A stretch of DNA of 64,000 nucleotides from an uncultured Candidatus Saccharibacteria bacterium (GCA_964628585.1 CAZVMH010000002.1:33751-97750), one strand, 5' to 3'. Positions 774-61,346 are shown, counted from the first letter of the stretch. Made by a program: numbers and translations. Notes: generated from the letters alone by a model not told the origin.

Positions 774-2537
774 TTATAGTTGTGAATTGATTTCAGAAAG
801 AGCCTGATTAATTGGCAAGACAGTTAATCCGCTTGTTGATAGTGCTGCCATTTGAGCATTAAAGTTGGCAGGAGTTGTTTCATATTGGGTCGGGCTGGTT
901 CCAATTCTATGGTATACAATTACTAACCAAGTTTTGTCTTGTTTTGCTTTTTGCACCCACGTATTGAATTCTGCAAGAGTAGTGGTGTTGGTCATATTTT
1001 GAACCCGAATATTGTAGGAATTAAAATTATCTTTTGAATTATAACCCTCGTCTGTGCTTCTGTGGGAGCTATAATATTTTTTTATTTCAGTAATTACTCT
1101 AGTATCGTATTCCCCATATGGAGTAGCAAAACTTTTTATTGTGCCAGATCCAATAATTCCTTCTAAATATGTTTTAGAAGTTGAAAGTTCATTATCTATT
1201 TGGCCCGTGGTCAGTGTCATTAGATGGGGATGGGTAATTGAATGGGATCCAATTTCGTGACCGGCGGTTGCGAAAGCTTTTATTTTATATATTTGATCAG
1301 TCTGACTTTGAAGGTATGTGGTGGCTAAATATTGAGTCGATTTAAAACCGTATTGATTAATCACCGGTAAAACTGAAGTATAATTGTCTTCCCAGCCGTC
1401 ATCAAAAGTTAGTGTTACAAGGGGGCGATTGAACCCAACAATTGTATGAGCAGTTACGCAATAATCATCTGTAATTAGAAAACCAACAGAAGAAATAAAA
1501 TGCAAAACAGTAAATTGTTTTACTCCAATAGGAATTGTAAAGACATCAGAATATTTTTTCCAACCACTCGATGGGTCTGCACTGCCAAGACCGATGTATT
1601 CTTCACTACCATTATTTTTTATTAACCTAACTGCAATTTGAGTCGTCACATTAGATTGGTAATAATCTGTAAACAAGTAGTCGCCAGGCACGGCAGTCTG
1701 GGGGTTATAAGCCCATTTAGCATCACCGTCGGTGTAACTTGTCATTTGAACTTTTACACTGTGAGAGCCAGTGTAACCAGTACTCAAATAGCTGAATTGG
1801 GCGGTATTGGTGCCCCACTTTTCCGTTTGCCAGTCCAAGGGAGTGGCTCCGTTTGTATTTTGTTCAACAGAACTATTTGGAATGATATTGGTGGTTACCG
1901 GTGGAACAGGAGGTACGGGTGGAAGTGGTGGTTCTGGCGGAGTCGGAGGGGTTGGAGGAGTTGGTGGCTCTGGGGGAGCTGGAGGAGTAATTATATCCTT
2001 TTCGCCAAAATAAAAATTATCCGTTGTTAAATATCCAACTTTATTAATCAAGTGTAAAATAGTAACTTTGCTGGCATTTGTTGGAGCAGTAAAATTAAAG
2101 CTAGCGTTTTTCCATGTTGTTGATTTGGCAACTGTGCCGAGTTGAATATATGATTCTTTACCTGTTTGATCAAAAATTCTGGCAACAACCTTGGTTTGGA
2201 CTGAAGACTTATAATAATCACTAAAAATATAAACCTTGTTTGGTGTTACAGAGATTGGATCAAAGTACCATTTAGCATCTCCGTTTTTAAACGAAGTCAT
2301 ATTAATATTTAAGCTTTTTGTTCCATCCTGTGAACCGCTTGTTTGGTATGAGAATGTTGCTTTGTTGGTGCCCCAGCGTTCCGTTTTCCAGTTTAAAGGT
2401 GATTTTAAATCGGCAGTACTTGATTCTACTGAAGAATTTAATATTAAATTTGCGCTTTGTGCTTGAACGCTCTGAGTCACACAAAAACTACCCAATAAGA
2501 TTAACAACCCTGTCAGGGTAAAAAATAGTTTTTTCAT
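774..2537 (-). CDS. Secreted polysaccharide deacetylase (NodB homology domain) with two N-terminal carbohydrate-binding-module-like beta-sandwich repeats and a Pro-rich linker
   Basis: Signal peptide MKKLFFTLTGLLILLGSFCVTQSVQA. Duplicated 'W.TE.WGTN.A.FSY...GDAKWY' modules. Linker PPAPPEPPTPPTPPTPPEPPLPPVPPVPP. NodB motifs TFDDGW and HSITHPHL. Confidence 0.8.
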   Translation of the reverse strand: MKKLFFTLTGLLILLGSFCVTQSVQAQSANLILNSSVESSTADLKSPLNWKTERWGTNKATFSYQTSGSQDGTKSLNINMTSFKNGDAKWYFDPISVTPNKVYIFSDYYKSSVQTKVVARIFDQTGKESYIQLGTVAKSTTWKNASFNFTAPTNASKVTILHLINKVGYLTTDNFYFGEKDIITPPAPPEPPTPPTPPTPPEPPLPPVPPVPPVTTNIIPNSSVEQNTNGATPLDWQTEKWGTNTAQFSYLSTGYTGSHSVKVQMTSYTDGDAKWAYNPQTAVPGDYLFTDYYQSNVTTQIAVRLIKNNGSEEYIGLGSADPSSGWKKYSDVFTIPIGVKQFTVLHFISSVGFLITDDYCVTAHTIVGFNRPLVTLTFDDGWEDNYTSVLPVINQYGFKSTQYLATTYLQSQTDQIYKIKAFATAGHEIGSHSITHPHLMTLTTGQIDNELSTSKTYLEGIIGSGTIKSFATPYGEYDTRVITEIKKYYSSHRSTDEGYNSKDNFNSYNIRVQNMTNTTTLAEFNTWVQKAKQDKTWLVIVYHRIGTSPTQYETTPANFNAQMAALSTSGLTVLPINQALSEINSQL

Positions 2538-2586
2538 TTTTTCCTCCGCTATACTAATAAATTTAATTTATGAAAATTAATACAGT

Positions 2587-3858
2587 CTAATAATTGTACT
2601 GAGAACGAAGATGGGTGCGATGCAAACGCCGATTTACCAATAATACTAAAATTAAAAACAAAAAATTTGAAGTCATATAGAGTTTGCTTAAAAGGTTTGT
2701 GCCCATGATCGAGTTTATTAAAGACTCAAATTTTTTCTTTGAAAAAATAAAACCAGTCGATTTTAAACTTTGGTCAAAACTGGCGTTTGTCTGTTTGGGA
2801 ACGGTTGTATTTTCTACAGAACTTTCTTTTTGCTCATTCAATACTTGGTCATCCACATTTTCTACTACCAACTGAAAGCTCTTAGAACCCTTTTTGTTGA
2901 TAGATTCAGAAGATTTGCTACTACCAGTTGAGGGTGTATTTGTGGTAGTTGAGCTAGGAGTGCTTGTGCCATTTACACCATTTGAAAAGGCAATTCTTGA
3001 TTTTTCACTAGAATTAATTCTCCAGTCAGTCTCTTTGTTAATTGAAAACCAAGTAAAGCCCTGAATTCTTGTAAATTTATTTCGCAAGTCAGAAAACATT
3101 GCTGTTATCCAAGCTGCTTTATCGCCACCGCTTTCAGCAGAAGCAACTTCCATAATCAGAACATTTTTAGAAGATATGCTGGTAATCTCATTGTATGATT
3201 GTCCAAAAACTTCTGAAAATGATTGCCAGACACTCCATGACTGGGTTGTACCCCAGTTATAGCCATCTAGCCCGACAAAATCAACATACTCATCTCCAGG
3301 GTATATCTGACCATACGAACAGGGATCACCGTAAAAACGAACATTCGGTGACCATATCCATGATACATTTGTGACTCCATTATTTCGAAAACGATTTATA
3401 ACATATCGCCAGAAAGTCTTATGACTTTCTGTTGTGTTTCCATTGTTTGTTACTCCCCAAGGAGCCCACTCCGAATTCATTTCTGGAGCAAGGCTTATTC
3501 TGACCGGGGAACCAAAACTTTTTACGCTAGCCGAAAATTGATCGAGGTATGCATCATATTGACCTGCCGTAACATTATCATACGAGACGCCATTGCCTCC
3601 TATTTGGGGTTGCCATGTTAGTTCAGGAATACAACCGTGATCAGAAAATCTCTTGGCTATATCAACATAAAAAGGGTCCGACCAATCTTCGTACCATTTA
3701 CATGAGTTAAATTTTACTCCCAGGTCTGTTTCAAATCGACTCAAAACAGAGATATCAGAAGAAGAGTTCGGGAGAAAAATATTTGATTCCAAATTCCTAC
3801 CTTGTGTGTGAGGTGTTTTTATTGCAGTAGCAACAACCAAAATGGCAACTAAAAACAA
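2587..3858 (-). CDS. Secreted glycoside hydrolase, clan GH-A-like (GH26/GH5-like), with a C-terminal Ser/Thr-rich tail
   Basis: N-terminal signal/TM. Candidate acid/base and nucleophile glutamates in 'LAPEMNSEW' and 'LIMEVASAE', with aromatic-rich (beta/alpha)8-like spacing. Family assignment is tentative. Confidence 0.5.
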   Translation of the reverse strand: MFLVAILVVATAIKTPHTQGRNLESNIFLPNSSSDISVLSRFETDLGVKFNSCKWYEDWSDPFYVDIAKRFSDHGCIPELTWQPQIGGNGVSYDNVTAGQYDAYLDQFSASVKSFGSPVRISLAPEMNSEWAPWGVTNNGNTTESHKTFWRYVINRFRNNGVTNVSWIWSPNVRFYGDPCSYGQIYPGDEYVDFVGLDGYNWGTTQSWSVWQSFSEVFGQSYNEITSISSKNVLIMEVASAESGGDKAAWITAMFSDLRNKFTRIQGFTWFSINKETDWRINSSEKSRIAFSNGVNGTSTPSSTTTNTPSTGSSKSSESINKKGSKSFQLVVENVDDQVLNEQKESSVENTTVPKQTNASFDQSLKSTGFIFSKKKFESLINSIMGTNLLSKLYMTSNFLFLILVLLVNRRLHRTHLRSQYNY

Positions 3859-3951
3859 AACACGGAAAAGAGCTTTATTGATATACCCTCCAAAAACCCT
3901 CCTTGGTTTTCTAGATCAAGAATATAATGACACGGTAGCCGGTGTCAAGTT

Positions 3952-4983
3952 TTATGAAGCAGTAGGCGCAACCGAGTATCTATTAACTTTGTTCCAAAGA
4001 AGATTTTTCTTATCTCCAAATAGAACTCTAAAAATAGAATAATAGAAACAAAATATATTAATACAATAAAAAATCGAGAAAAGAGGGATAAAGGGGATAA
4101 TCCAATATTTTTTTTCAATGAATGAAACCAGTAGGGCAATAGCAGAAATTGTTATAAGGGTAGCTACAAATAAATGAATAAAAATAAGTGGACGCATAAT
4201 AGCAAGCGCGAAAGTAAGAATCCAAAGCATGTTATCAAAAAGTAAAAAATAAAGTTCTAAATTAAATTTTGAATTTGGTTTATAGAGTTTATGTAAAAAA
4301 ATGTTTTGCCAAGTTCCTGTATTCCAACGCAAAACTTGCTTCCAATAGTCTTTAAAAGTCATTGGGTCTTGGGTCGTAACAACAGCAAGAGGCGCATAGA
4401 TAATCTGACCCAATTTTTTCTTATGAATTTGAATTGTGAGGTCAAAGTCTTCAGTTAAAGTTGAGCTTTGTAGATCAAGTTTTTCTAAAACATCACTTCT
4501 ATAAAGAGAGGCGCAACCAGGCGCGACAGTAACTGCACTAATAAAATTTTGAGCGGCTTTATAAATTTTGTGAGAAACACAGTATTCATAGGTACGGAAT
4601 GCGCTAATTAATCCTTTTCTGTCAGAAGTCACTGTACCAACGATTAGAGCGGGTTTTTGTTTTTTATATTTTTTAATTTCACTCATGAAATTTTCAGACA
4701 AACGACTGTCGGCATCAGAAAAAAGAACGTATGAATATCGTTTTGTTAAATTGCGACTCTTTATTAATTTTTTTAGTGCCGTTGCTTTTCCGCAATTGTT
4801 CCTAAGATTCATTACGTTCACATTGGCTTTTTTTGCAATAGACGCAGTTTTGTCAGTTGAGCCGTCACTTACAACAAAAATATCATCAGGACTCAGAACT
4901 TTTTTCATAGCCTGCAATGATGCGCCAATTACTTCCTCTTCGTTTAGAGCGGGAACAACAACACAGAAAGTTTTTTTAGCCAT
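3952..4983 (-). CDS. Family-2 glycosyltransferase, processive synthase type (PgaC/IcaA/cellulose-synthase-like), with C-terminal TM helices
   Basis: GT-A motifs VVPALNEEE, SDGSTD and DADS (DxD); Q(V/L)xRW motif 'KQVLRW'; C-terminal hydrophobic helices. ATG at 4983 preferred over the upstream TTG at 5028. Confidence 0.8.
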   Translation of the reverse strand: MAKKTFCVVVPALNEEEVIGASLQAMKKVLSPDDIFVVSDGSTDKTASIAKKANVNVMNLRNNCGKATALKKLIKSRNLTKRYSYVLFSDADSRLSENFMSEIKKYKKQKPALIVGTVTSDRKGLISAFRTYEYCVSHKIYKAAQNFISAVTVAPGCASLYRSDVLEKLDLQSSTLTEDFDLTIQIHKKKLGQIIYAPLAVVTTQDPMTFKDYWKQVLRWNTGTWQNIFLHKLYKPNSKFNLELYFLLFDNMLWILTFALAIMRPLIFIHLFVATLITISAIALLVSFIEKKYWIIPFIPLFSIFYCINIFCFYYSIFRVLFGDKKNLLWNKVNRYSVAPTAS

Positions 4984-5332
4984 TTTTATGAAGCAATTTT
5001 CTGTATGATTTTCTAAAGAAAACCACAACGCTTGCTACAGCTGCGATTAAAATGTGACCTCCGAAGCTTGGTCCACCCATAGGTAGGTTGTACATAAGTT
5101 CCTTTCGAACAAAACTTGTTAATAAAAAATGAGGGGGAAAACCCTCATTTAATCCGATGGTTTGCATAGTACACTCATTAGATCTTTTTGTCAACAATGA
5201 AAAAAATATTTTAAAAAATAGTTAATACTTTTTCATACTTTTTTAAAACATGGCATATGGAAAATATTTGCTATTTAAAATTATTAAGTCCTGCTATTGA
5301 CAAAACTTATTTCTTTTGGTAAACAATGACTA

Positions 5333-7027
5333 ATGATTAAGAAATTACTTTTATTGATATGTCTAATCGCCTTGCCCTTTTGCGGACTAGATTTTTCACG
5401 TGCTTTTGCAGCCAATCCAAATCTAATTGCCAATCCCTCTGTAGAAACATTGGACTCAACTAAACTTTCTCCAGTCGATTGGTCTTTTAATAGTTGGGGA
5501 ACGAACACAACAACTCATAGCGTTACTACTACTTCACGACAAGACGGAGTGCGGAGTGTTACTATTAATATGCTAAGACGTACAAGTGGTGATGCTAAGT
5601 GGTATTTTAAACCAGTATCAGTTTCTGGGGGCACAGAATACACCTATACTGACTACTACCATTCTAATATTCCAACTGAATTGGTGGTTCAATTTACTCA
5701 TCAGGGCGGAAGAGTCACTTATCAGAGTTTGGGAACGGTTCAAAAAAATCTGGGCTGGGGCAAGTCAGATTTTTCTTTCACCACACCCCAATATGCAATA
5801 AAGGCAACTGTATTTCACTTAATTAATAAAATCGGATACTTGGGAATTGATAATTGTTATCTTGGCAAGAAAGAACCTACACTCCCAACTCCACCAGTAG
5901 TAATTACAGATAATGTCCCAAATAATTCAGTTGAAGAATCTGTTAACTCAGAACCCCGAGACTGGCTAAAAGGCGGATGGGGCAACAATACTGCAACTCT
6001 TTCATATTTAAATGAAGGACACACAGGAACAAAAAGTTTAAAAACTGAAATCACCAATTATGTCGATGGTGACGCCAAATGGTATTTTACTCCACAAAAA
6101 TTGCTTCCAAATACTACTTACCAATTTTCTGATTTTTATAAATCAGATGTTGCTAGTAGCGTTGTCCTACAAATAGATAAAACAGATGGTACAACTAGCT
6201 ATCAATATTTGAAAAATGCCGAGGTAGCTTCTGTTTGGACACAATACAAAGACACTTTTACAACACCAGCCGACGTTTCTACTTTAACTGTTTTCCATCT
6301 GATCGCTTCAGTAGGTTTTTTAATAACTGACGATTTTTCAATAACTCCTTTTGTTGCTCCTGCTTTCAACCAGCCAATAATTGCCATAACTTTCGACGAT
6401 GGTTGGGAATCGCAATACACAAACGGTCTATCAATTCTTTCAAAATATCAGATATTGGCTACATACTATTTAACTTCAAGTTTTCTTGAGCAACCAGAAT
6501 ATTTAACAAAACTAGAAGTGAACTCTCTCAAAATGTCTGGTGGTGAAATTGCTTCTCATTCTGTGACTCATCCATTTTTAACACAGTTGCCTTTGTCACA
6601 AATGCTCTCTGAATTAACTCAGTCTAAAAATGATTTAGAAAATGATTTTGGTAAAATTAACAGTTTCTCTGTTCCTTACGACGATTATAACGATACAGTA
6701 ATTAATTCAATTAAAACTCTTTATTCATCTGCTCGTATTTCTGACACAGGGTATAATAATCTAAATAATTTTGATGCGTACAGACTTAAAACTCAAAATA
6801 TTTCAAGTACTACAACTGTAACTGAATTAAATAGTTGGATTGCGGAAGCAAAAGTCAGCAAAAGTTTGCTAGTGCTTCTTTATCACCAAGTAGACAATAA
6901 TGGTGGAGCTTATAGTGTAACTCCAGAAAACTTTGATCTTCAAATGTCTGCCATCAAATCAAGCGGGATTAAAACCAGTACTATCAGCCAAGCCATGGCA
7001 GAGCTAACTCCACAATTAATAAAGTAA
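5333..7027 (+). CDS. Secreted polysaccharide deacetylase (NodB) with two CBM-like repeats; paralog of 774..2537
   Basis: Signal peptide. 'W.FNSWGTN...GDAKWYF' modules twice. NodB motifs ITFDDGW and HSVTHPFL. Same architecture as the first deacetylase but without the PP linker. Confidence 0.8.
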   Translation: MIKKLLLLICLIALPFCGLDFSRAFAANPNLIANPSVETLDSTKLSPVDWSFNSWGTNTTTHSVTTTSRQDGVRSVTINMLRRTSGDAKWYFKPVSVSGGTEYTYTDYYHSNIPTELVVQFTHQGGRVTYQSLGTVQKNLGWGKSDFSFTTPQYAIKATVFHLINKIGYLGIDNCYLGKKEPTLPTPPVVITDNVPNNSVEESVNSEPRDWLKGGWGNNTATLSYLNEGHTGTKSLKTEITNYVDGDAKWYFTPQKLLPNTTYQFSDFYKSDVASSVVLQIDKTDGTTSYQYLKNAEVASVWTQYKDTFTTPADVSTLTVFHLIASVGFLITDDFSITPFVAPAFNQPIIAITFDDGWESQYTNGLSILSKYQILATYYLTSSFLEQPEYLTKLEVNSLKMSGGEIASHSVTHPFLTQLPLSQMLSELTQSKNDLENDFGKINSFSVPYDDYNDTVINSIKTLYSSARISDTGYNNLNNFDAYRLKTQNISSTTTVTELNSWIAEAKVSKSLLVLLYHQVDNNGGAYSVTPENFDLQMSAIKSSGIKTSTISQAMAELTPQLIK

Positions 7028-7043
7028 TTTTTCAGACAAATAT

Positions 7044-7077
7044 TAAAAAACGGCTGTCACTAAGCCGTTTTTTTTTG
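7044..7077 (+). terminator. Rho-independent terminator (AACGGCT...AGCCGTT plus T9)
   Basis: 7-bp GC-containing stem followed by a T-run immediately after the deacetylase stop. Confidence 0.75.
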
Positions 7078-7352: not shown

Positions 7353-7877
7353 ATGTTAAAAAAGTTATTATTTGTGATTGCTTTAGTAGCAGTCGGTGCC
7401 GGTTCGTATGGAATCGCCCGAGCATACTTTAGTAGCTTAACACCCGCTAATGCAACTGAAACATTTACTGCTGGGACAATCAGCATTAGTCTCGAAAGGA
7501 ATGATGCCAATAGCTCAGCATCAATTGGATTAACTAATTGGATGCCAGGAGACGAGGCATGGGTAGCATATGATGTGAGAAATACCAGTACAGTGCCAGT
7601 GACATTAACCGGGTATATTAACGGTACTTGGGGCGCTCCTTTAGGTGATCAAATGGTTCATGTTGTAGCTGCACAGTACTGGGATGGTTCAACTTGGCAG
7701 AACATGGCTGCTCCGAATGGCACATTTTCTTACGCTGGTCCGGTACCTGCAAACGGTGGGATAGTAACGATGAGAATGAAAGCAAGGTTTGAATCAGAAG
7801 CAGGAAATGATTTTCAGGGAAAAACATACACGGCTAGTATCTTTGTTACGGCACATCAAATAGGCGAGCCAATTTAA
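7353..7877 (+). CDS. TasA/camelysin-like secreted protein with SipW-cognate-class signal peptide
   Basis: N-terminus MLKKLLFVIALVAVGAGSYGIARAYFSSLTPANATETFTAGT (AYFS...N..F.AGT signature); strong RBS AAGGAGGGG. Confidence 0.7.
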   Translation: MLKKLLFVIALVAVGAGSYGIARAYFSSLTPANATETFTAGTISISLERNDANSSASIGLTNWMPGDEAWVAYDVRNTSTVPVTLTGYINGTWGAPLGDQMVHVVAAQYWDGSTWQNMAAPNGTFSYAGPVPANGGIVTMRMKARFESEAGNDFQGKTYTASIFVTAHQIGEPI

Positions 7878-8047
7878 ATTGATAGGTTTAAAAATTGACT
7901 TTCTAAATCCCGACAGAACTTTGTCGGGATAAGTGAGAAACAATTAGTAAGGTGAGGTCGATACCTTATATACAAAATTAATTCACTCTGTGAAATAATT
8001 CGCAAAGCGGATTTGAAGAACAATTTCACTAGGGTAAAGGAGTAATT

Positions 8048-8599
8048 ATGTTTAAAATAGTAAAAAGTTTAGTTTTAGTTTTTGCTTTTGTAGTAATGAC
8101 AGCTGGTGCAACGCAGGCTGTATTTACAAGCCAAGCTTCAGTTGTCGGCAATACCTTTGCTACAGGCAGTTTAGAAATTAGAATCAACGGTCAGGCAAGC
8201 ATACCAGGCTTTAATGTTACAAATGCTGCTCCTGGACAATCACAATCAGGGCAATTTGGTGTTAATAACTATGGTCAACCCTGGTTTGCTGGTCCTTCAA
8301 CATTGGCTGCAAAAGATTTAACAATTTCAGCAGTTATGACGGGTGGAGACGCAAGCCTTTTTAACAAGTTAGACGTAGTTGTTGAGGCTAATCGAGGATG
8401 GCCAACTTGGATGCCAGTTTATAGCGGTCCTCTTTCTGGTTTAGCTAACGCTGACTTATTGGATGATCGTTGGTCAGAGCTTATTGCTGGAAGTTCAGAA
8501 GATGTTCGTTATACAGTAACTTTGCCGTTGGATGCTGATGATTCATATCAAGGGCTTTCAACAACTTTCGATTTTGTAGTTGATGCTGCTTCAAGCTAA
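8048..8599 (+). CDS. TasA/camelysin-like secreted protein with SipW-cognate-class signal peptide
   Basis: N-terminus ...MTAGATQAVFTSQASVVGNTFATGSLEIRING; RBS AAGGAG; followed by a GTCCCGATG...CATCGGGAC hairpin. Confidence 0.7.
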   Translation: MFKIVKSLVLVFAFVVMTAGATQAVFTSQASVVGNTFATGSLEIRINGQASIPGFNVTNAAPGQSQSGQFGVNNYGQPWFAGPSTLAAKDLTISAVMTGGDASLFNKLDVVVEANRGWPTWMPVYSGPLSGLANADLLDDRWSELIAGSSEDVRYTVTLPLDADDSYQGLSTTFDFVVDAASS

Positions 8600-8655
8600 G
8601 GGTTTTTAGTCCCGATGTAACATCGGGACAATAAAGCTTTTAATTTAAGGAAAAA

Positions 8656-9261
8656 ATGAAAATTTACAAAATTTTAACCTATCTGATTTACTCGCTACTA
8701 ATTATTTGTTGTCTTCTTTTAATATTATCCCGTTTTTCAATATCCGGAGTCAGGCTTTTTTCAGTTCAGTCGGGGTCAATGGAGCCAGAAATTAAAACTG
8801 GTAGTATGGTTGTTGTAAAAACTGCTTCGAATTATAACCTAAACGATGTTATTACTTATTATGATCGTACAGATAGTAAAAAAACTGTTACTCATAGAAT
8901 AGTGGACAAGAAAACAACTGGCAGTATAGAACAAATTATTACAAAAGGTGATGCCAATGGTTCAAATGATTCAATTGCAATAACTAAAGATCAAATTATA
9001 GGAAAAGTGCATTTTTCAATTCGATATCTCGGTTATCTTGTTGGTGCGGCAAAAACAACGGTTGGTTTTATTATTTTAATTGTGATCCCAGCCACAATTA
9101 TTATTTATGAAGAAATAAAAAAAATCCATCACGAAACAAAACATATTATTAAAAGAAGACGCGAAAGAAAATTAAACAAGGAATTAGATAAAAACAAAAA
9201 CAATTTAGAAAATGAAAAAATGGTTGATAATATAAAAGGAGAAAACAATGAAACTTCTTAA
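8656..9261 (+). CDS. sipW: Signal peptidase I, archaeal/eukaryotic type (SipW-like), with a C-terminal TM and a KE-rich tail
   Basis: N-terminal TM, then catalytic-region motif 'SGSMEPEIKTGSMVVVK' typical of SipW-type S26 peptidases; C-terminal TM and basic tail. Confidence 0.75.
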   Translation: MKIYKILTYLIYSLLIICCLLLILSRFSISGVRLFSVQSGSMEPEIKTGSMVVVKTASNYNLNDVITYYDRTDSKKTVTHRIVDKKTTGSIEQIITKGDANGSNDSIAITKDQIIGKVHFSIRYLGYLVGAAKTTVGFIILIVIPATIIIYEEIKKIHHETKHIIKRRRERKLNKELDKNKNNLENEKMVDNIKGENNETS

Positions 9262-9883
9262 GTTATTAGTTTTTGTTTTTGGTTTGTTATCTGTGACATC
9301 TTTTGCCACAAATGCTTATTATGGTGACCAAGCGACAGTTTCTGGCAATGAATTCTCCACAGGCACTTGGAGCCTCCCAGAAGCAAGGGTAGTAATGAAT
9401 GAAGTTTACTACGATGTTGATGATGTGCATGGTGGCATGGAAGACGAATGGATTGAGCTTTATAATGCTGGAAATGCTTCAATCAACATTAAAGATTGGT
9501 ATTTAGAAGACAATATGGGTTATTCCGATAGAGAAGTTATTAATCAAAATTATATTATTGAACCTGGTCAGTTTGTTCTGCTTTCAGCCAATGCTAGTAT
9601 CTGGAATCAGTATTGGGGAATTGTACCAGAAAATGCAGTAAAAATTGCTTTAGGTGGAACGAGAATATTTTCTGGTCTTGGAAATAATGGGGACAGAGTA
9701 ATTCTTAAAAATGATTCAGGTCTCATTATTGACCAACTAAGTTATGGAACCGATATAACTGTTTTTAACCCTTCAATTCCTGATGTGCAAAAAGGACATT
9801 CAATTTCTAGAAATCCAGCCGGATTCGATACCGATGTGGCGAGTGATTTTATTAACCTAACAATGCCAACGCCAGGAGCATAA
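9248..9883 (+). CDS. Secreted lamin-tail-domain (LTD) protein with SipW-cognate-class signal peptide
   Basis: N-terminus ...TNAYYGDQATVSGNEFSTGTW. LTD signature 'NEVYYDVDD...EWIELYNAGNASINIKDWYL...GQFVLL...GDRVILKNDSGLIIDQLSYG'. Confidence 0.7.
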   Translation: MKLLKLLVFVFGLLSVTSFATNAYYGDQATVSGNEFSTGTWSLPEARVVMNEVYYDVDDVHGGMEDEWIELYNAGNASINIKDWYLEDNMGYSDREVINQNYIIEPGQFVLLSANASIWNQYWGIVPENAVKIALGGTRIFSGLGNNGDRVILKNDSGLIIDQLSYGTDITVFNPSIPDVQKGHSISRNPAGFDTDVASDFINLTMPTPGA

Positions 9884-10849
9884 ATGAAACTATTATCAAT
9901 CAAAAACTTCTATACGGGGGTACTAATTCTGTTATGTTTATTTTTTGCTAATATCTCTACTGTTTCAGCACAAATCTTAAATGTTGGTAATTTGGATATT
10001 GAATACGAAGGAACGGGAGCACTTTTTAACGCTACTAATATTTATCCTGGATATAGTGAAATTAAAACTATATCAGTAAAAAATACTGGACGAGTGGCTC
10101 ATTCTTTTTCTATTGCCGTTACAGGAGAATTGGGGGGACTAGCCAATGTTCTGCAGATTGAACCGAGAAATTTTGAGACAGGTGCACCCATTTGGAATAA
10201 AACAATAAGCAATATTGCTAAAGCGCCCAGTTCAGATGTGATTTTGGGTTCAATCGCTCCGAACGAAACAAGAAAGGTTAGCATTGTAGCGATTTTGCCC
10301 GAAAGCGTTGGTAATGAGTATCAGGACAGCACTACTTTTGCTTTTGATTTTGTAGTTGGGAATGAAAGTACAGACCAAAAAGAACCAAGTGAAAGTTCTG
10401 GTTCTGCGTCTGTCATAACAACATCAATAGATATTAAAAATGTTTTTACTTTAGGTCCAGCACCAATCTCTAGTAATGAAGTTGTAAAAACCGATACTCC
10501 AGAAGTGGCAACAAGCTCACAGACAGATATTGTTGAATTGGCATCGGCCAATAATGAGGGTAAAACGGAAGGTGCTACAATAGACAATAAGCCGGTTTGT
10601 TTTTGGTGGTGGGTCTTACTAGCTCTTTTGGCGGTGGTCTTAATAATATATGGGGTGATAGTTCGAAATTGCAAAAATTGGTTTTTCTTGTTCTGGCCAG
10701 TTTTCTTTGGTGCCACTACTTATGTGGTTCACTGGATTTTCCACGATTATTACAATCCTTCAAAGTGGTGTAATTGGTGGTTTATTGTCATACTTTTAGC
10801 AGAGCTTGTTATATACTATATAGTTAGGAGCAGAAGAGAAGAAGATTAA
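9884..10849 (+). CDS. TasA-like secreted protein with a C-terminal Trp/Cys-rich double-TM anchor
   Basis: Signal peptide; beta-rich domain similar to the upstream cargo proteins. C-terminus CFWWWVLLALLAVV...KWCNWWFIVILLAELVIYYIVRSRREED. Confidence 0.55.
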   Translation: MKLLSIKNFYTGVLILLCLFFANISTVSAQILNVGNLDIEYEGTGALFNATNIYPGYSEIKTISVKNTGRVAHSFSIAVTGELGGLANVLQIEPRNFETGAPIWNKTISNIAKAPSSDVILGSIAPNETRKVSIVAILPESVGNEYQDSTTFAFDFVVGNESTDQKEPSESSGSASVITTSIDIKNVFTLGPAPISSNEVVKTDTPEVATSSQTDIVELASANNEGKTEGATIDNKPVCFWWWVLLALLAVVLIIYGVIVRNCKNWFFLFWPVFFGATTYVVHWIFHDYYNPSKWCNWWFIVILLAELVIYYIVRSRREED

Positions 10850-10863
10850 ATTGGTTATATTCG

Positions 10864-10892
10864 AAAAAAGACCCATTAGTCGGGTCTTTTTT
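10864..10892. terminator. Bidirectional terminator (A6-AGACCC-loop-GGGTCT-T6) between convergent genes
   Basis: Hairpin flanked by an A-run and a T-run. Confidence 0.75.
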
Positions 10893-10907
10893 CATTTATT
10901 TAAATAT

Positions 10908-12616: not shown

Positions 12617-14335
12617 TTAATAGCTTATAGTCATTTTATCATATTCAATTTTTATTTTCTCGTTCTGGTCGATGTCTTTTAATATTGTGTCAAGAACTTT
12701 TTGTTTAGCTGTACCAGTTTGAAGTTGGGGTTTAGTATCTTTTTGAATTGTGGGAAGAACAATTAGTTCCAATTTATCTGCCGTAAACTTACCAGCCACA
12801 ATTAAGCCTTGTTGTGTTTCAGGAGAAAAATATTGATCAAAAAGTAGATTGCCCAAAGAATAAACAATCGGGACATTTTTGTAAATTTCGATATCTTGGA
12901 CAACATGAGGATGTGAACCAATAATTAAATCAGCACCGGCATCTATCCAGCTTTCAGCCAAGTTTTCTTGCGCTTGTGAATGAGTTTGTTCATATTCATT
13001 GCCCCAGTGAGGATAAATAACTACTTTGTTGCCTTTTTTCTTTTCGGTTTTTATTAAATTAAGATCTAAGTCGGTATTTAAAGTGTCAATGGTTATAATG
13101 GAGGCCTTAATCCCATTGCCAGAAAATTCTTTAATTGAGTCAGCATCAACTCTGGCGTCTTGACCAATAGGGGCGATATCATTCTTTTTCAATAAATCAA
13201 CAGTGTAGCTCAAACCTTTCTGTCCGTTGTTAAGAGTGTGATTATTGGCTAGACTAACTGCGTTCAGATGCATCCACTTTAAAACATCAATAGTTTTTGG
13301 AGGGAAATTGAAAACTAAACTGTGATTATAATCGGGTTCTCTCGGCACAGAGCTAATTGGTCCCTCTAAGTTAACTATCTTAAGATCTGTTCCCCAAAAA
13401 GTTCTTTCACCTAGATTTTTCATAACATCCATTAATTTTTCACCCTGGAAAAAGTATTCAATTCCTCGATCAAACATCATATCGCCACCAAAAGTAAGAG
13501 AAAAGGATTGTTCAGATGTTGATTTATTGCCTTTTTCATATAAACCCATCACATGAGTGGTGGACTCGACATCAAAATTATTACTCAAAAAACCTGAATT
13601 GGTATTGGCAAAAAGAGAAAATTTTTCTGTTTTCTCTAATTTAGCCCAAGAAAGGGCTACATTCAGAACTTCAGGCGAATCCGTTTCGGCGAGTAAAATA
13701 TTATTTATATCTAAATTATTAAGTGCAGAAATTGTAAAATCGTCATGAAGTTGAGCTAAATTGGCCGGTTGGTAATGCGAAAAATCGACAGAAGCAATAA
13801 AAAGAAGGTTTTCATTTTCTTTTTGCAAAGTAGAAATCAAATTATCAAGATCAGTTGTTTTTGTATTACTTTTAATTATTAGGGGCACGATATTAGCCTT
13901 AGGAAAAGTATTTTCAATGTCGGCCAAAATATTTTTAATGCCGTGTTCTCGTTCAAAAGCTGAATTTTCATTACAAGCAATTTTTTCTTCCACTAATTTG
14001 GTAATTATCGTTTTCTCGGCAGAAATCTTACTATCAGATAAATCCCAATCCTGATCAGTAGTCTCAATATTGCAGGATCCAGTTTGAAAATGATTTGTTG
14101 AAGCTAATACTATCGTTTTTGGATTCGTCTTGTCTTTAATCGATGCAAAAAATTCTGCTCTTTTGTCTTTTACTAGGTCGTGATGGGGGACTATTATAGT
14201 AGAGATGGTGGGTTTGCCCGCCACGAGCGGAGTTGAGGAGTTTTTAGAAACTGACCGACTGCAAAAATAGGCGATGGCGACTATTAAAGCTAAAAAGAAT
14301 ATTGCGATCCAAATTTTGGGGGAAGATTTTTTCAT
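12617..14335 (-). CDS. Fusion protein: N-terminal MEMO1/AmmeMemoRadiSam-B-like domain plus C-terminal CapA/PGA-capsule-synthesis metallophosphatase domain
   Basis: N-terminal TM. 'IIVPHHDLVKD...STNHF' in the N-terminal half. 'FGGDMMFDRGIEYF...LANNHTLNNGQKG...GSHPHVVQDIE...YSLGNLLFDQ' CapA-family motifs in the C-terminal half. Confidence 0.65.
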   Translation of the reverse strand: MKKSSPKIWIAIFFLALIVAIAYFCSRSVSKNSSTPLVAGKPTISTIIVPHHDLVKDKRAEFFASIKDKTNPKTIVLASTNHFQTGSCNIETTDQDWDLSDSKISAEKTIITKLVEEKIACNENSAFEREHGIKNILADIENTFPKANIVPLIIKSNTKTTDLDNLISTLQKENENLLFIASVDFSHYQPANLAQLHDDFTISALNNLDINNILLAETDSPEVLNVALSWAKLEKTEKFSLFANTNSGFLSNNFDVESTTHVMGLYEKGNKSTSEQSFSLTFGGDMMFDRGIEYFFQGEKLMDVMKNLGERTFWGTDLKIVNLEGPISSVPREPDYNHSLVFNFPPKTIDVLKWMHLNAVSLANNHTLNNGQKGLSYTVDLLKKNDIAPIGQDARVDADSIKEFSGNGIKASIITIDTLNTDLDLNLIKTEKKKGNKVVIYPHWGNEYEQTHSQAQENLAESWIDAGADLIIGSHPHVVQDIEIYKNVPIVYSLGNLLFDQYFSPETQQGLIVAGKFTADKLELIVLPTIQKDTKPQLQTGTAKQKVLDTILKDIDQNEKIKIEYDKMTISY

Positions 14336-17710: not shown

Positions 17711-19234
17711 TTGTCAAAAATTTCATTCGGAAAAATACTTCAAAGGAAACAAAGAACAAAGGTAATAACTATAGTAATCACTACATTGCTTTTGGTTTTT
17801 ATAGGAGGCTATTTTATATCAAAAAGTCCAAGTTTAACTCATGCGGCCTCATACTATAATTCGGGGACAAATGTTTTGAATATTGATGATGTTTCTTGTA
17901 CAGCAACGCTAACTCTATATGGGGCAGGCGTTCCCAATGGAGGGACCGGTGATAGTGATGATTCTTTGCCACAAAGAATTGTAGTTACTGGCGGAACGTG
18001 TGGCACCATATCGACTGAAGTGAATGGGACCACTTTACCATCAAATGTTAGTGTTGTTATTGCCAATAAAGAAGTAAAGATGTTTACTAATCCTGGAGTC
18101 CCATTTCAAGCAAAGAATATTACTATTAATAATGGAGGTGTTTTAACTCACGACTTATTAATTGCTACAACCGATTTTAATCCTGCTGCACCAACATTTG
18201 CTTTGAATCTTAATGGTCAAAGAAAAAAAGTTGATTTGGATATTCTCTATACTGGTGCAGGAACGGGGAATTTAACTATTACAGGAAATGGAAAAATTAA
18301 CGTTGATGGTAAGGGCTACCCAGGGCGAGATGGTAGTGGATATGGGCCAGGATTTAGTCTTTCCAATAGTGGTTATAGCGGGGGTGCTGGTTATGGAGGG
18401 GCGGGAGGAGATGCTAAACAAAACGGAAGCATTGGTGGTGTTGCTTATCCCTCGATTGCGACTGCTTCACAATTAACAGAGTTATTGCCGGGATCAAGTT
18501 CCGGTTCTGATGATGGTGCTAACGGAGCGAGTGGAGGAGGAATTATACAACTTAGAATTGGGGGACAACTAACCATTGGCTTAAACGGTCTAATATCGTC
18601 AAATGGTAATAATGGATCAGATTTGTGGTTTAATCATGGAAGCGGAGGAGGATCGGGAGGAAGCATAAAGATAACTTTTTTGGCCAATCAAGTTCAATCG
18701 CCTAGTGTAAATGTAAGTTGGGGAGACAAAAGTGGCAACGGGCAAGACGGGGCTGCTGGTACGGTGTATATTAGCGGCGTTGTTCTAGCTGGTAATGCTC
18801 CTGACAGAATACAAGCCAAAGGCGGTGATGTTGCTGTTTTGTCCGATTCGGGTGGTGGTGGAGGCGGAAGGATTGCGCTTTTTGGTGTAGATTCTCCAGG
18901 CACTTTAAGTGCCAATATAACAAAAACATTAACAGCTGTTGAAAGAAATGGCTTGCCAGATACAAGTTTTAATCCTTATGCTTTGCAGAAGGGCGATAAA
19001 ATAAAAATCACTCTGACAGTATCGGGTATAAAAACATTTCCCTATATACTAGAAGATCCGTGGTTGAAAACAATAAACAATACTAAAATATGTACGCCAA
19101 TAAATGGTACGTATGCTGGATTGGGGAATCCATTTTTAGACACATCGGACTCTCAGAATAAAAAAATAGTCTGGACATTTATAAGCACGGACCCGTCTTC
19201 TCCAATTGTTGAATATCAATGTTTGGTTAATTAA
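17711..19234 (+). CDS. N-terminally anchored Gly-rich beta-solenoid-like surface protein; paralog of the upstream gene (shared C-terminal domain)
   Basis: TM VITIVITTLLLVFIGGYFI. Repeats GSGGGSGGSIKITF, SGGGGGGRIALFG. C-terminus 'FNPYALQKGDKIKITLTV...EYQCLVN' aligns with 'FNPYTLQKGDKIGVTLKI...YYECIVK' of the previous protein. TTG start with an AAGGA RBS. Confidence 0.6.
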   Translation: MSKISFGKILQRKQRTKVITIVITTLLLVFIGGYFISKSPSLTHAASYYNSGTNVLNIDDVSCTATLTLYGAGVPNGGTGDSDDSLPQRIVVTGGTCGTISTEVNGTTLPSNVSVVIANKEVKMFTNPGVPFQAKNITINNGGVLTHDLLIATTDFNPAAPTFALNLNGQRKKVDLDILYTGAGTGNLTITGNGKINVDGKGYPGRDGSGYGPGFSLSNSGYSGGAGYGGAGGDAKQNGSIGGVAYPSIATASQLTELLPGSSSGSDDGANGASGGGIIQLRIGGQLTIGLNGLISSNGNNGSDLWFNHGSGGGSGGSIKITFLANQVQSPSVNVSWGDKSGNGQDGAAGTVYISGVVLAGNAPDRIQAKGGDVAVLSDSGGGGGGRIALFGVDSPGTLSANITKTLTAVERNGLPDTSFNPYALQKGDKIKITLTVSGIKTFPYILEDPWLKTINNTKICTPINGTYAGLGNPFLDTSDSQNKKIVWTFISTDPSSPIVEYQCLVN

Positions 19235-19244
19235 AGAAGAAACA

Positions 19245-21170
19245 ATGGTTAAAATTATTCGTAAAATATCATTATCATTATTACTCCTAGGTTTACTTTT
19301 TTCCTATTCAGAAGCAGCTGATCCTGCTTTGCCGGAAGTAATGGTGGGACAACCTAGGGTTTGGTATGGGGCAGCAGCTCCCTACACGTATGTTTACGGC
19401 GGTTTTTCTGGTAGCGAAGCAGTTTATAACTATCAGAACGATCCTGGCCAAACAATGGGGGAGAGGTTAGCCCCAAGTTTGAGTTTAAGTGGGACAACTA
19501 ACAGTTATATTGATGTAGGAACTGGTCCTGTTATTACAGGACAGGGTGATTTTTCGGTTTCTCTTTGGTTTAAAAGAAACGGACCCAATCAAGCAAATGA
19601 TTGGCAAATGCTTGCGACCCAAATTGGCATTCCTCACATGTCAAATTTTAAATTACAATTTAATCATACTACTAATAAAATACACTTTAGCATTTTCGGC
19701 ACTTCCGATGGAGTTTCTTGTGGTGGTGCTGGAATACCTGAATTTGAAGTGATATCAAGTACTTCCATAAACGGAACAGACACAAAATGGCATCATGTAG
19801 TTGCTCAAAGAGTTAATCAGGGAGGAGGAGTAACGAAAGGTCAACTCTGGCAAGATAATATAAAAGTGGCAGAATCAGGGGCATCAACCGGTATTGTTTA
19901 TTTGAACACTCCCACTCCAACTTGTTCTGGATATGTTGATGCGACAAAGAGTAGGGTTGGTATTGGTTCTACTCCAGAATCGGTAAGAAGTGGTTCTAAT
20001 CCCGCAAACTCTTTTAAGGGTAATATTGATGAAACAAGAATATATACAAAATCTTTAACCTCTACAGAAATTTCTCGGTTGTATAAGGGGACAGAAACAG
20101 CAGAGGACAATTTGTCGTCAAATGGTCTCAGAGCCTATTGGAAATTTAATGAGGGCGCAGGATCGCAAGTCTTAGATTCATCTGGTAATAACTATACTGG
20201 TAATGCGATCAATACTACATGGAATGCCAATGAAGGTGCTTCGCCTGTTGATTCTACTAAATATGATAACATGGGCTATGATTTATTTGGATTTGATACA
20301 ACTGCCTTGGCTGATTGCATAAATGGGATAATTTTAGGACGAGACAGGTGTTTTGTCTCAAATTCTTCGATGAGTAATATTGTGGTTATGAATAGTCGAA
20401 CATATATTAATGATAATCCAGCTACAGAGGTGGCAGCACTTTTGTCTCCACCGAAGCCATTAATAGCGGGAGATGCCTATTTAGGTGCCCTTCTTGATCC
20501 AAATAACTTTGCTTATTGGGGAAAGAATTTGACTGAAAGAAGAAGTGCGGGTACTAGTCCAAATGCATATTGGGGGATAGGATCGTACGCTAACATATTG
20601 GCGAGCGATATACCAAAATATGAAGAAAAAATTAATATTGCTTTAAAAAGTGCCAAATCAATAACTTCGTTACCGAACTCAATGGGCCTTCAGGGTAGCG
20701 GTGATATGTCTGATATTTCAAGCGAAGCTGACAAATATCCCAATGGTAAGGTTTGGTCCATGAGCGCGCCTGGAGGCCAAACGAATTTTGGAAGCCCTAG
20801 AACATATATAGGAAAGGGCACACTGATTATCAAAAATAATGTTTGTTTTGGCTATGCTGCTCCAAACTGTAATGCGTCAAATTATACTTGGAAAAAAAGA
20901 GTGGATGGGAACACAAATGATTATCAAATGGGCATTATTGTTCAGGGGAATGTAAACATTGCAAGTGGTAGCACAATTGAGGCAGCAATATTTTGTACCG
21001 GGACTATGACAGTTGGTGATAACGTTACATTAAGGGGATCTTTTGTAGCACAGCAGTTCTTGTTTAGTGGTACTGGAAGTGGTACAAAATTTATTTATGA
21101 TGAGAGTTTGAATAAAAATACTCCACCGATATTCGGTGAGTTGAATATGCCGAATCCGACAGAAAATTAA
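19245..21170 (+). CDS. Secreted LamG/concanavalin-A-like lectin-domain protein with a large C-terminal region
   Basis: Signal peptide ISLSLLLLGLLFSYSEA. Laminin-G-3-like signature 'GDFSVSLWFKRNG...WHHVVAQR...FKGNIDETRIYTKSLTSTEISRLYKG'. ATG 19245 with an AAGAAGAAA RBS. Confidence 0.65.
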   Translation: MVKIIRKISLSLLLLGLLFSYSEAADPALPEVMVGQPRVWYGAAAPYTYVYGGFSGSEAVYNYQNDPGQTMGERLAPSLSLSGTTNSYIDVGTGPVITGQGDFSVSLWFKRNGPNQANDWQMLATQIGIPHMSNFKLQFNHTTNKIHFSIFGTSDGVSCGGAGIPEFEVISSTSINGTDTKWHHVVAQRVNQGGGVTKGQLWQDNIKVAESGASTGIVYLNTPTPTCSGYVDATKSRVGIGSTPESVRSGSNPANSFKGNIDETRIYTKSLTSTEISRLYKGTETAEDNLSSNGLRAYWKFNEGAGSQVLDSSGNNYTGNAINTTWNANEGASPVDSTKYDNMGYDLFGFDTTALADCINGIILGRDRCFVSNSSMSNIVVMNSRTYINDNPATEVAALLSPPKPLIAGDAYLGALLDPNNFAYWGKNLTERRSAGTSPNAYWGIGSYANILASDIPKYEEKINIALKSAKSITSLPNSMGLQGSGDMSDISSEADKYPNGKVWSMSAPGGQTNFGSPRTYIGKGTLIIKNNVCFGYAAPNCNASNYTWKKRVDGNTNDYQMGIIVQGNVNIASGSTIEAAIFCTGTMTVGDNVTLRGSFVAQQFLFSGTGSGTKFIYDESLNKNTPPIFGELNMPNPTEN

Positions 21171-45443: not shown

Positions 45444-45801
45444 TAGTATTGGGCAAGTAAATTGTATTTTAATAAGACGAGGAGTGGGATCCTTGTTTTT
45501 TTGTTTCCAATCTGGCTGGGAACTGGGGAAACTTAAGATTCTGGGCTTATAGGTTGGTTGGCATTGATGGCCCCTTAAAAAATGTGGGCCTGGCCTAACC
45601 AACTTCCACTATCCTACGCCTTTTTCCTGGCTGGGTTAGAAACTAAAAGTGGCAAAGGGCGAAAAACAGCAATTGAATTTGCAGTTTTTCGTCTCTTGCC
45701 AGAATCATTCTGGCAGAGTTGACATAGTAAACCCTCCTCACCGGAGGTTACATATGTGGCACATCCACAATTTAAGACAAAAAGAAAGTGAGGAACGAGA
45801 A

Positions 45802-46857: not shown

Positions 46858-46871
46858 AGGAGGGACACACC

Positions 46872-47588: not shown

Positions 47589-47604
47589 GCGGTGGCAAAG
47601 TACC

Positions 47605-47635
47605 GTCCCGCCCTTTCAACCAGAAAGGGCGGGAC
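47605..47635 (+). other. Strong GC hairpin (12-bp stem GTCCCGCCCTTT/AAAGGGCGGGAC) marking the right boundary of the GC-rich island; no U-tract
   Basis: Read directly. Confidence 0.6.
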
Positions 47636-47698
47636 TCCTCTAAGCTCACAAAGAGATTTGTGAACTTAGAAAGAGTAAAAATAAGTAATTAAGTATTA

Positions 47699-61169: not shown

Positions 61170-61346
61170 ATCATGAGGGTGAGTGAGGAAGCATTCTCAA
61201 GAGGGACAAATTAATTAGTTATTCAGTCACGCCAGATATAATTACAAATTATGCGGTAGTGTGCTGGACAGTCATTTCTGCCTTCGGGCAGAGCGTAGGT
61301 TCCCCCTCCGCCTACGAGACTGTTCGGCACAGTGCCGCATTTTTTA
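61170..61346 (+). ncRNA. Candidate ~175-nt structured transcript (sRNA or riboswitch-type leader) ending in a hairpin plus T6
   Basis: Bounded by the consensus promoter and the CGGCA-CAG-TGCCG plus TTTTTT element. Internal hairpins CTGCC-TTCG-GGCAG and CGTAGG...CCTACG. No convincing ORF or RBS. Confidence 0.3.

Follow-up and report, generated by a model that had tools for sequence, protein, structure and literature searches.

A putative synthase-dependent surface-glycan module of Patescibacteria with module-bearing CE4 deacetylases and a membrane-tethered GH26 hydrolase

Introduction

In the ica/pga systems for poly-N-acetylglucosamine (PNAG), encoded by icaADBC and pgaABCD, a synthase of glycosyltransferase family 2 (GT2) is encoded with a small membrane protein, IcaD or PgaD, of about 100-137 amino acids (aa) and two helices, and a carbohydrate esterase of family 4 (CE4) and a glycoside hydrolase (GH) act on the product outside the cytoplasm. 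A GT2 is also paired with a NodB-type CE4 in NodC/NodB; the catalytic motif of NodC, the chitin synthases (CHS) and the hyaluronan synthases (HAS) is (E/G)DR. The pssA-E/pssZ genes of Listeria, among other Gram-positive loci, form a synthase-dependent exopolysaccharide (EPS) system of a monoderm, with a BcsA-like GT2, a putative deacetylase, a dedicated hydrolase and a polymer of N-acetyl-hexosamine. Here we describe a gene cluster at positions 774-7027 of a 64,000-nucleotide (nt) stretch of DNA from an uncultured Candidatus Saccharibacteria bacterium (GCA_964628585.1, CAZVMH010000002.1:33751-97750; the whole stretch is called the window, and its GC content is ~36%), in which a GT2 synthase is grouped with a hydrolase of family GH26 and two secreted CE4 deacetylases with modules resembling carbohydrate-binding modules (CBMs). 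An initial annotation of this DNA had compared the cluster with pgaABCD/icaADBC in function, with another architecture, and the trio of synthase, deacetylase and hydrolase proved to be kept across Patescibacteria. We consider it fairly likely that the cluster is a synthase-dependent Patescibacteria system for a partly de-N-acetylated surface glycan based on N-acetylglucosamine (GlcNAc).

The likeness to ica/pga lies in a GT2 with the D, DxD, TED and QxxRW motifs, in a small membrane protein encoded with the synthase, in an extracytoplasmic CE4 and a glycoside hydrolase that would act on the product, and in the absence of a Wzx/Wzy or ABC exporter. In contrast to ica/pga, the window GT2 lacks two N-terminal transmembrane (TM) helices, the hydrolase is a GH26 protein of its own, where PgaB has a GH153 domain, tandem CBM-like modules are attached to the deacetylases, an outer-membrane porin and elements of cyclic di-GMP (c-di-GMP) signalling are missing, and the linkage in the product is probably another one. 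With NodC/NodB and the chitin and hyaluronan synthases the cluster shares the GT2 and NodB-type CE4 pairing; NodC is the second-best family for the GT2, HAS and CHS are its best fold matches, and sister lineages have a chitinase-like GH18 enzyme. However, the window CE4 enzymes bear CBMs and are extracellular rather than cytoplasmic, and the synthase, with a smaller number of membrane helices, has TED in place of (E/G)DR. The Listeria pss system differs in its hydrolase (GH8 there, GH26 here), in its c-di-GMP receptor, which has no counterpart in the cluster, and in the architecture of its synthase. By analogy, the module would work like ica/pga and Listeria pss, but hidden Markov model (HMM) cutoffs, its topology, its accessory proteins and the family of its hydrolase all place it outside ica/pga.

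Gene organization of the locus

The four genes of the cluster, predicted in the initial annotation as a processive GT2, a glycoside hydrolase and two CE4 paralogues, were located at 774-7027 by listing of open reading frames (ORFs) and by domain scans with Pfam and NCBIfam. Three of them lie on the minus strand: the GT2 synthase (3952-4983; 344 aa counted from its ATG, or 358 aa in a longer version of the ORF from an upstream TTG start), with matches to PF13641, PF00535, PF13632 and Chitin_synth_2; the GH26 hydrolase (2587-3858, 423 aa; PF02156, E-value 7.7e-14, 52.2 bits against a cutoff of 20.2 bits); and the CE4 paralogue A, CE4a (774-2537, 587 aa; PF01522 Polysacc_deac_1, 4.7e-27). The gaps between them are 93 bp (GT2-GH26) and 49 bp (GH26-CE4a). 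A fifth, very short ORF of 39 aa (4976-5095, minus strand), identified by translation and by its conservation in the clade of the window, precedes the GT2 gene. The CE4 paralogue B, CE4b (5333-7027, plus strand, 564 aa; PF01522 4.1e-21, CBM_4_9 5.2e-7), is divergent from the operon micro-ORF-GT2-GH26-CE4a. Since the ORFs are long and the family E-values range from 1e-14 to 1e-27, the family matches are not due to chance. The identical four-gene arrangement was found in two relatives, L001 (GT2 identity of 93%) and L005 (78%), and the named homologues were all from Patescibacteria, Saccharimonadales or Berkelbacteria, which assigns the window to a patescibacterium.

The synthase and its candidate small partner

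The GT2 has a cytoplasmic GT-A domain with the motifs DGSTD, DAD, VAPG, TLTED and QVLRW. In an alignment of 26 homologues, 37-78% identical, PAxNE, DGSxD, DAD, VAPG, TLTEDxD, TQDP and QxxRW(N/Y)xGxWQN were invariant, and a C-terminal WxKVxRY tail was also conserved. No N-terminal TM helix is present; in all clades the protein begins at the first beta-strand. The best NCBIfam match of the window GT2 was PgaC_IcaA (96.2 bits, E-value 2e-27, model positions 44-321 of 407), followed by NodC (45 bits) and CelA (26 bits), all of them far under the equivalog cutoffs. PgaC_IcaA was the top NCBIfam model for 26 of the 26 members and covered both halves of the domain, with an E-value of 3.6e-29 for the best member. 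The window GT2 did not reach the cutoff of the PgaC/IcaA equivalog TIGR03937, which is 422.3 bits. The description of this protein as a PgaC/IcaA-type GT2 was thus correct as to its QxxRW and DxD motifs and its closest family, but with 96 bits against 422 it is not an orthologue.

Sequence and profile searches of the PDB aligned the region from TED through QxxRW to the membrane helices with BcsA and HAS1. In the AF2 model (pLDDT 88, pTM 0.86), the GT-A domain is followed by the QxxRW helix (residues 211-231) and by three long hydrophobic helices (240-323). The top Foldseek matches of this model were the hyaluronan synthases of Chlorella virus and Xenopus (E-value 3e-15, query-normalised TM-score up to 0.80), then came chitin synthases and then BcsA. 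Weak matches to Glyco_transf_21, to polyprenyl-phosphate transferases and to models like dolichol-phosphate mannose synthase (DPM) were limited to the N-terminal, nucleotide-binding half. None of the Pfam, NCBIfam, PDB and fold searches placed the protein among the dolichol-phosphate-type transferases, an outcome that the initial annotation had named as evidence against its own reading. On sequence and predicted fold we assign the GT2 to the membrane-integrated, processive class and not to the dolichol-phosphate type; it is unusually small for that class.

The short ORF came to light when the leader of the GT2 gene was aligned with the leaders of L001 and L005. With an AAGGAA ribosome-binding site and a stop codon that overlaps the ATG of the GT2, it encodes the peptide MYNLPMGGPSFGGHILIAAVASVVVFFRKSYRKLLHKNG. 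By prediction, the peptide forms one short, hydrophobic helix and has a basic tail. In a systematic scan, an ORF of this kind, of 36-40 aa, was seen in every locus of the window's clade (clade A, see below) with sequence upstream of the GT2; in the 16 distinct peptides M1, G-P-S and H14 are invariant, and a hydrophobic stretch with a basic tail is common to them. The ORF was absent from the ~60 more distant loci (clades B and C), where merely unrelated small ORFs were seen, at three loci. It is unannotated, being missing from the gene calls of the relatives' contigs, and it matched no Pfam family, PgaD and IcaD included. Its sequence and position make it a candidate small membrane partner of the synthase. 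The peptide and IcaD/PgaD are alike in position and in coupling to the synthase, which is an analogy and no homology. IcaD and PgaD have two helices and the peptide one. We also considered the N-terminus as a sortase LPxTG signal, because LPATG, LPSTG or LPKAG occurs in some loci, and rejected this reading since that string varies between loci and only G-P-S-x3-H is invariant. Separately, at the clade C loci L061, L069, L080-L082 and L084 (e.g. L082:9143-9784), the gene just upstream of the GT2 encodes a sortase (PF04203, 9e-25).

The deacetylases and their CBM-like modules

CE4a and CE4b are 42% identical over their full length, and both open with typical Sec signal peptides, as read by eye from the sequence. 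Their PF01522 scores were 94.9 and 75.7 bits, respectively, against a cutoff of 23.1 bits. In CE4a the signal peptide is followed by module 1 (nt 1983-2456), a Pro-rich linker, module 2 (1464-1901) and the NodB/CE4 domain (774-1430); in CE4b it is followed by module 1 (5411-5878), module 2 (5903-6337) and the NodB/CE4 domain (6368-7027). The pair had been proposed to be paralogous secreted deacetylases with duplicated CBM-like modules, and both parts agree with our results: Pfam and the motifs identify CE4, and each protein has two modules of ~150 aa, which are 33-46% identical to one another. CE4a carries TFDDGW, HSITH and WLVIVYH, and an HSVTH form of motif MT2 is also present in the pair. 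Among homologues, 51 of 52 kept MT1 ((T/S)FDDGW), MT2 (H[ST]xxH) and MT5 (WLxxxxH). The best full-length NCBIfam match of CE4a was HfsH; no protein of the module reached the equivalog cutoffs of PgaB (22 against 322 bits) or IcaB (19 against 248 bits). The nearest solved CE4 structures, at ~1e-10, were 7bly, 7ax7, PdaC and SpPgdA, both fungal and bacterial, and these matches did not discriminate between substrates.

The CBM_4_9 family scored over its cutoff in one of the four window modules (in CE4b, 30.6 against 25.9 bits) and matched 14 of 30 diverse modules of the family at E-values of at most 0.01. Searched against the PDB, a module profile gave a weak match to CBM4-2 (E-value 0.011), and a model of module 2 of CE4b, of medium quality (pLDDT 76), matched CBM22, CBM4-2, CBM16 and CBM11 at 1e-6 to 1e-4. 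Sequence and model thus assign the modules, to fold class only, as predicted chain-binding beta-jelly-rolls of the CBM4/16/22 superfamily. An exhaustive profile search found the module in 2,029 representative proteins, in up to 7 copies and in proteins of up to 2,674 aa; a word-indexed search with a single module had given just 3 proteins.

The hydrolase

The hydrolase had been described as secreted and clan-GH-A-like. The Pfam GH26 model spans just part of the protein, and a phmmer search against the PDB matched the entire catalytic domain (aa 37-295, nt 2974-3750), with 1e-52, to GH26 of C. thermocellum CelH/CtLic26A (2bv9, 2cip). CtLic26A is a GH26 beta-1,3/1,4-glucanase (PMC10470212). GH26 belongs to clan GH-A, so the earlier clan assignment held, and by its relationship to CtLic26A the enzyme is predicted to be a polysaccharide endo-hydrolase. 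A GH outside the polysaccharide hydrolases, the other outcome that the initial annotation had named as contrary evidence, was thus not seen. As a CtLic26A-like GH26 the enzyme is neither GH153 nor GH20, and by family it is not a PNAG hydrolase. The window protein and CtLic26A are 37% identical (MAFFT) and have in common both catalytic Glu and many motifs around the active site, among them YPGDxYVD, DGYNWG and NKETDWRINSS. The acid/base E126 (nt 3481-3483) aligns with E109 of CtLic26A and the nucleophile E237 (nt 3148-3150) with E222, and His108 of CtLic26A, beside the acid/base, is Pro throughout the window's clade.

The protein has a hydrophobic signal at the N-terminus, a linker rich in Ser and Thr, and, at the C-terminus, a TM anchor whose tail is basic. 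The membrane tether was kept in the GH26 homologues, the distant ones being anchored at the N-terminus instead. CtLic26A is secreted, cellulosomal and biomass-degrading, whereas the window GH26 is membrane-anchored and encoded in a biosynthetic operon. A protein with a 100% identical GH26 sequence, P0121, recorded at NCBI and in Logan run SRR29243428, had been called as 417 aa. The GH26 relatives from outside the Candidate Phyla Radiation (CPR), L086 and L088, were orphan genes with uninformative context. A paper on Actinoplanes that cites CtLic26A was examined as a parallel and set aside, as it concerns a Wzx/Wzy cluster with an uncharacterised GH26.

Conservation across Patescibacteria

Conservation of the gene neighbourhood had been suggested as a check of the cluster. 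Species-representative genomes were scanned and gave 80 related loci, nearly all from Patescibacteria; the domains of the window were used to search the ORFs of these loci in six frames, and all neighbouring ORFs were then clustered. For the linkage count we took the 36 loci at which the GT2 is flanked by 8 kb or more on each side. Of these, 32 contain a deacetylase (CE4 or DUF2334) and 30 a hydrolase (GH26 or GH18); both partners stood beside the GT2 at 27 loci, and neither at only one. The linkage to the GT2 held down to a GT2 identity of 27% and in three gene orders. Clade A, that of the window (GT2 identity of at least 47%), has a divergent CE4 gene with two to four CBM-like modules, the micro-ORF, the GT2, GH26 and sometimes a second CE4 with two modules. 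In clade B (Microgenomates/WWE3, 33-37%), a CE4 of 290 aa overlaps the GT2 and is followed by GH18. Clade C (Paceibacteria-type, 27-31%) has the GT2, a giant CE4 protein and then GH26.

The partners are exchanged between lineages, GH26 for GH18 and CE4 for DUF2334. Thirteen loci without CE4 have a DUF2334 deacetylase-like gene, mostly adjoining the GT2. In clade B, a membrane-anchored GH18 (PF00704, 2.5e-21) replaces GH26 at L018-L030 (e.g. L025:11165-12292, minus strand, and L022:11069-12223); the DxxDxDxE motif was kept in 7 of the 14 ORFs of this cluster, which come from 13 loci, and the nearest solved relatives were a probable chitinase, YdhD and YaaH. A conserved multi-pass membrane protein of ~490 aa, with no Pfam match, precedes the genes at the clade B loci.

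The giant deacetylases of clade C have 1,200-2,457 aa and 4-6 CBM-like modules, with the CE4 at the end. In these proteins the last CBM-like module is inserted between MT1 and MT2 of the CE4, so that the NodB domain is split: MT1 ((S/T)FDDGW) lies ~170-190 aa upstream of MT2, with a complete module between them. This was seen at L037, L039, L043, L050, L053, L061, L063, L070 and L081-L083 (e.g. L070:10128-17498). At L037 and L043 the CBM-like module of the CE4 proteins is fused to GH26; because the same module is fused to both enzymes, the hydrolase and the deacetylase would share one target. In the GH26 of clade C (~20 loci), the nucleophile Glu is replaced by Ser ('IFSxAS') and the acid/base Glu is kept (e.g. 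L064:16085-17539, L039:9127-10785 and L070:17615-18820, all on the minus strand). Judged by sequence, these forms may have lost activity and serve in binding, or they may cut with another nucleophile or by substrate-assisted catalysis.

Surroundings of the module

The operon leader at 5127-5194 (minus strand) contains, by consensus scan, a sigma-70-like promoter, TTGACA-17-TACTAT, followed by a terminator-like hairpin, which is a weak feature. The hairpin has a T-run and lies ~30 nt upstream of the micro-ORF, and the sequence is kept in L001 and L005; the fold was not significant against shuffled sequence (z = -1.5) and matched no Rfam family. On the other side, a bidirectional terminator-like hairpin at 7045-7073 closes the CE4b gene and divides the module from an island at 7353-10849 (plus strand), which is bounded at its far end by a second terminator at 10863-10893. 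The island encodes two TasA/camelysin-like proteins (PF12389, weak), a SipW-type signal peptidase (NF046067, 2.3e-31), a Lamin-tail-domain (LTD) protein with a SipW-type signal peptide and a membrane protein of 321 aa. We excluded it from the module because it is absent from the 93%-identical L001, is bounded by terminators and co-occurs at only 2 of the 80 loci; SipW and LTD genes are also found near the GT2 in L057 and L078. The membrane protein of 160 aa at 235-717 was excluded as well, being conserved in the closest relatives only.

Elsewhere in the window, a 572-aa fusion of Memo-like (PF01875) and PGA_cap/CapA (PF09587, 2.5e-51) domains at 12617-14335 (minus strand) is kept in L001. Two further genes encode probable surface proteins, one of 654 aa with a Laminin_G_3/ConA-like lectin domain (19206-21170, plus strand) and one of 566 aa with DUF11 repeats (47699-49399, plus strand). 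At 46001-48000 the GC content is 0.555, against ~0.35-0.40 elsewhere in the window, and the ORFs at 45649-46857 and 46872-47588 had no Pfam match and long antisense ORFs; foreign DNA, or a gene of unusual composition, may account for this. ARAGORN predicted a 91-nt tRNA-like gene with a 2-nt 'anticodon' at 61251-61341 (plus strand), for which there was no Rfam tRNA call at the gathering score.

Discussion

We propose that the GT2 polymerises a UDP-activated N-acetyl-hexosamine, with UDP-GlcNAc as the likeliest donor and probably together with the co-translated 39-aa membrane peptide, and that it would pass the beta-linked chain through the single membrane as the chain grows. On the outside, both CE4 enzymes would dock on the chain via their tandem CBM4/22-like modules and strip some of the N-acetyl groups, and the membrane-tethered, presumably retaining GH26 endo-hydrolase would cut the chain, which may set its length, release it or clear stalled polymer. 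Because the triad persists with non-orthologous replacement of both partners, the three activities most probably meet on one polymer made by the GT2. A GlcNAc-based, partly de-N-acetylated chain is suggested by the affinity of the GT2 to PgaC, NodC, HAS and CHS, by the deacetylase partner and by the GH18 alternative. GH18 enzymes need GlcNAc, a 2-acetamido sugar, in the -1 subsite, and the GH18 of clade B therefore points to such a sugar in the polymer. As to the linkage, beta-1,4 or mixed beta-1,3/1,4 is more likely than beta-1,6, and a beta-1,6 PNAG product is doubtful because the GH26 is of the lichenase type and the modules resemble CBM4/16/22/11.

Several observations weigh against this proposal. 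The Arg of the canonical RxPY motif (MT3) is missing from the CE4 proteins, which read ATPYG or SVPYD there, with Ala or Val at this position across the family; further downstream, an Arg in R-x-x-[DE]-x-G-[YF]-N was invariant in 51 of 52 homologues and, judging from the alignment, may substitute for it. CE4 also includes O-acetyl-xylan esterases, and two of these, 2cc0 and 7ax7, were among the PDB matches. The solved CBMs matched by the modules carry xylan, cellulose, mannan or mixed-linkage glucan as ligands, the closest relative of the GH26 is a glucanase with unsubstituted mixed-linkage glucan as its substrate, and neither GH26 nor these CBM families are known to act on amino-sugar polymers; a lichenase-type GH26 with CBM4/16/22-like modules keeps a neutral glucan under consideration. 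The three hydrophobic helices of the GT2, all C-terminal, are fewer than in any solved channel-forming synthase, which makes chain export by this protein, alone, with the 39-aa peptide or as an oligomer, uncertain. Finally, no genes for precursor supply or regulation, e.g. c-di-GMP components, were seen in the cluster.

The partially deacetylated poly-GlcNAc or chitin-like polymer suggested in the initial annotation stands in its chitin- or chitosan-like form, or as another beta-1,3/1,4 amino-sugar glycan, more readily than as beta-1,6 PNAG. A true PNAG system, that is, a streamlined monoderm orthologue of icaADBC/pgaABCD with the GT2 as IcaA/PgaC, the micro-ORF as IcaD/PgaD, the CE4 as IcaB/PgaB and GH26 in place of GH153, is unlikely in our view. 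Such a system would explain the PgaC_IcaA model as the top match of the window GT2 and of all 26 members, the TED and QxxRW motifs that the GT2 has in common with PgaC, the small membrane ORF coupled to the synthase and the CE4 partner. However, the scores are a small part of the equivalog cutoffs (96 of 422 bits for the synthase, 22 of 322 for PgaB and 19 of 248 for IcaB), the two N-terminal TM helices of PgaC/IcaA are missing, and the micro-ORF product is similar neither to PgaD/IcaD nor to another Pfam family. The hydrolase is a lichenase-type GH26, the CBM matches bind xylan, glucan or mannan chains, whose geometry is unsuited to beta-1,6, and sister lineages have the chitinase-type fold of GH18.

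The same hydrolase and modules could instead indicate a neutral beta-glucan, xylan or mannan, e.g. a mixed-linkage beta-1,3-1,4-glucan, with the GH26 as its cognate lichenase, the CBMs as glucan-binding modules and the CE4 enzymes as O-acetyl esterases. The match of 1e-52 to CtLic26A with both catalytic Glu kept, the fold matches to CBM22, CBM4, CBM16 and CBM11, the acetyl-xylan esterases 2cc0 and 7ax7 among the CE4 matches and the TED motif in common with BcsA are all in line with it. Yet the module has no O-acetyltransferase to make the substrate of an esterase, the GT2 scores higher with PgaC/IcaA (96 bits) and NodC (45) than with CelA (26), and by fold HAS and CHS come above BcsA. In clade B, the exchange of GH26 for GH18 suggests a 2-acetamido sugar, and His108 of CtLic26A is Pro in the window's clade. 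We regard a neutral product as slightly less likely still than PNAG.

It is improbable that the CE4 and GH26 enzymes attack glycans of a host or of the environment, in feeding or invasion by an epibiont, with the GT2 as an unrelated neighbour; processing of host glycans had been named as a possible function. CPR epibionts have many surface proteins that bind or degrade glycans and are thought to be host-directed (PMC10633639), CtLic26A is degradative, and the giant multi-CBM proteins are adhesin-like. Against this, the partners stay linked to the GT2 even where its identity has fallen to 27%, through three gene orders and the replacement of both, and such persistence is difficult to account for if there is no substrate in common; the TM anchor holds the GH26 on the cell's own membrane; and the genes for GT2, GH26 and CE4a are spaced by just 93 and 49 bp on a single strand. 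Least probable is a non-processive GT2, with a glycolipid or a lipid-linked sugar as its product (GT21- or DPM-like), beside neighbours that modify the wall independently: its very small size, few TM helices and weak Glyco_transf_21, polyprenyl-phosphate transferase and DPM-like matches would fit, but these matches are limited to the N-terminal half, BcsA, HAS and CHS align with the TED-QxxRW half and with the helices, and chain-binding CBMs with an endo-hydrolase imply a polymer.

Returning to the GlcNAc-based glycan, one may join all observations in a broader and tentative picture, which we think unlikely to hold in every part. The module would be an ancestral, minimal Patescibacteria synthase system, with a GT2 of ~340 aa, three helices and, in one clade, a 39-aa peptide, making a chitosan-like layer of beta-1,4 or mixed beta-1,3/1,4 GlcNAc and glucosamine (GlcN). 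Its deacetylases would be guided by CBMs, some nested in the NodB domain, its GH26 would have been re-purposed for amino-sugar chains, with the Glu-to-Ser forms acting by substrate-assisted catalysis, and the whole could be a lineage-wide determinant of the epibiotic surface and of host attachment.

In the literature searched, we found no description of a CPR module of this kind. The essential EPS genes of Southlakia epibionticum (SEML1_0081-83) were considered as a counterpart and rejected, since they are of the Wzx/Wzy type and unrelated. For enzymology, the module offers what is possibly the smallest membrane-integrated processive GT2, with a candidate micropeptide partner, as well as NodB domains split by a CBM-like module and lichenase-type GH26 enzymes in a putative biosynthetic role, some of them without the nucleophile. 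Patescibacteria, ultra-small cells that live attached to other microbes, account for much of bacterial diversity, and their surfaces are almost uncharacterised. Spanning Saccharimonadia-like, Paceibacteria and Microgenomates lineages, the module is a testable candidate for a lineage-wide surface glycan, and it could give a handle, in the form of lectins, enzymes or antibodies, to label or perturb Patescibacteria cells.

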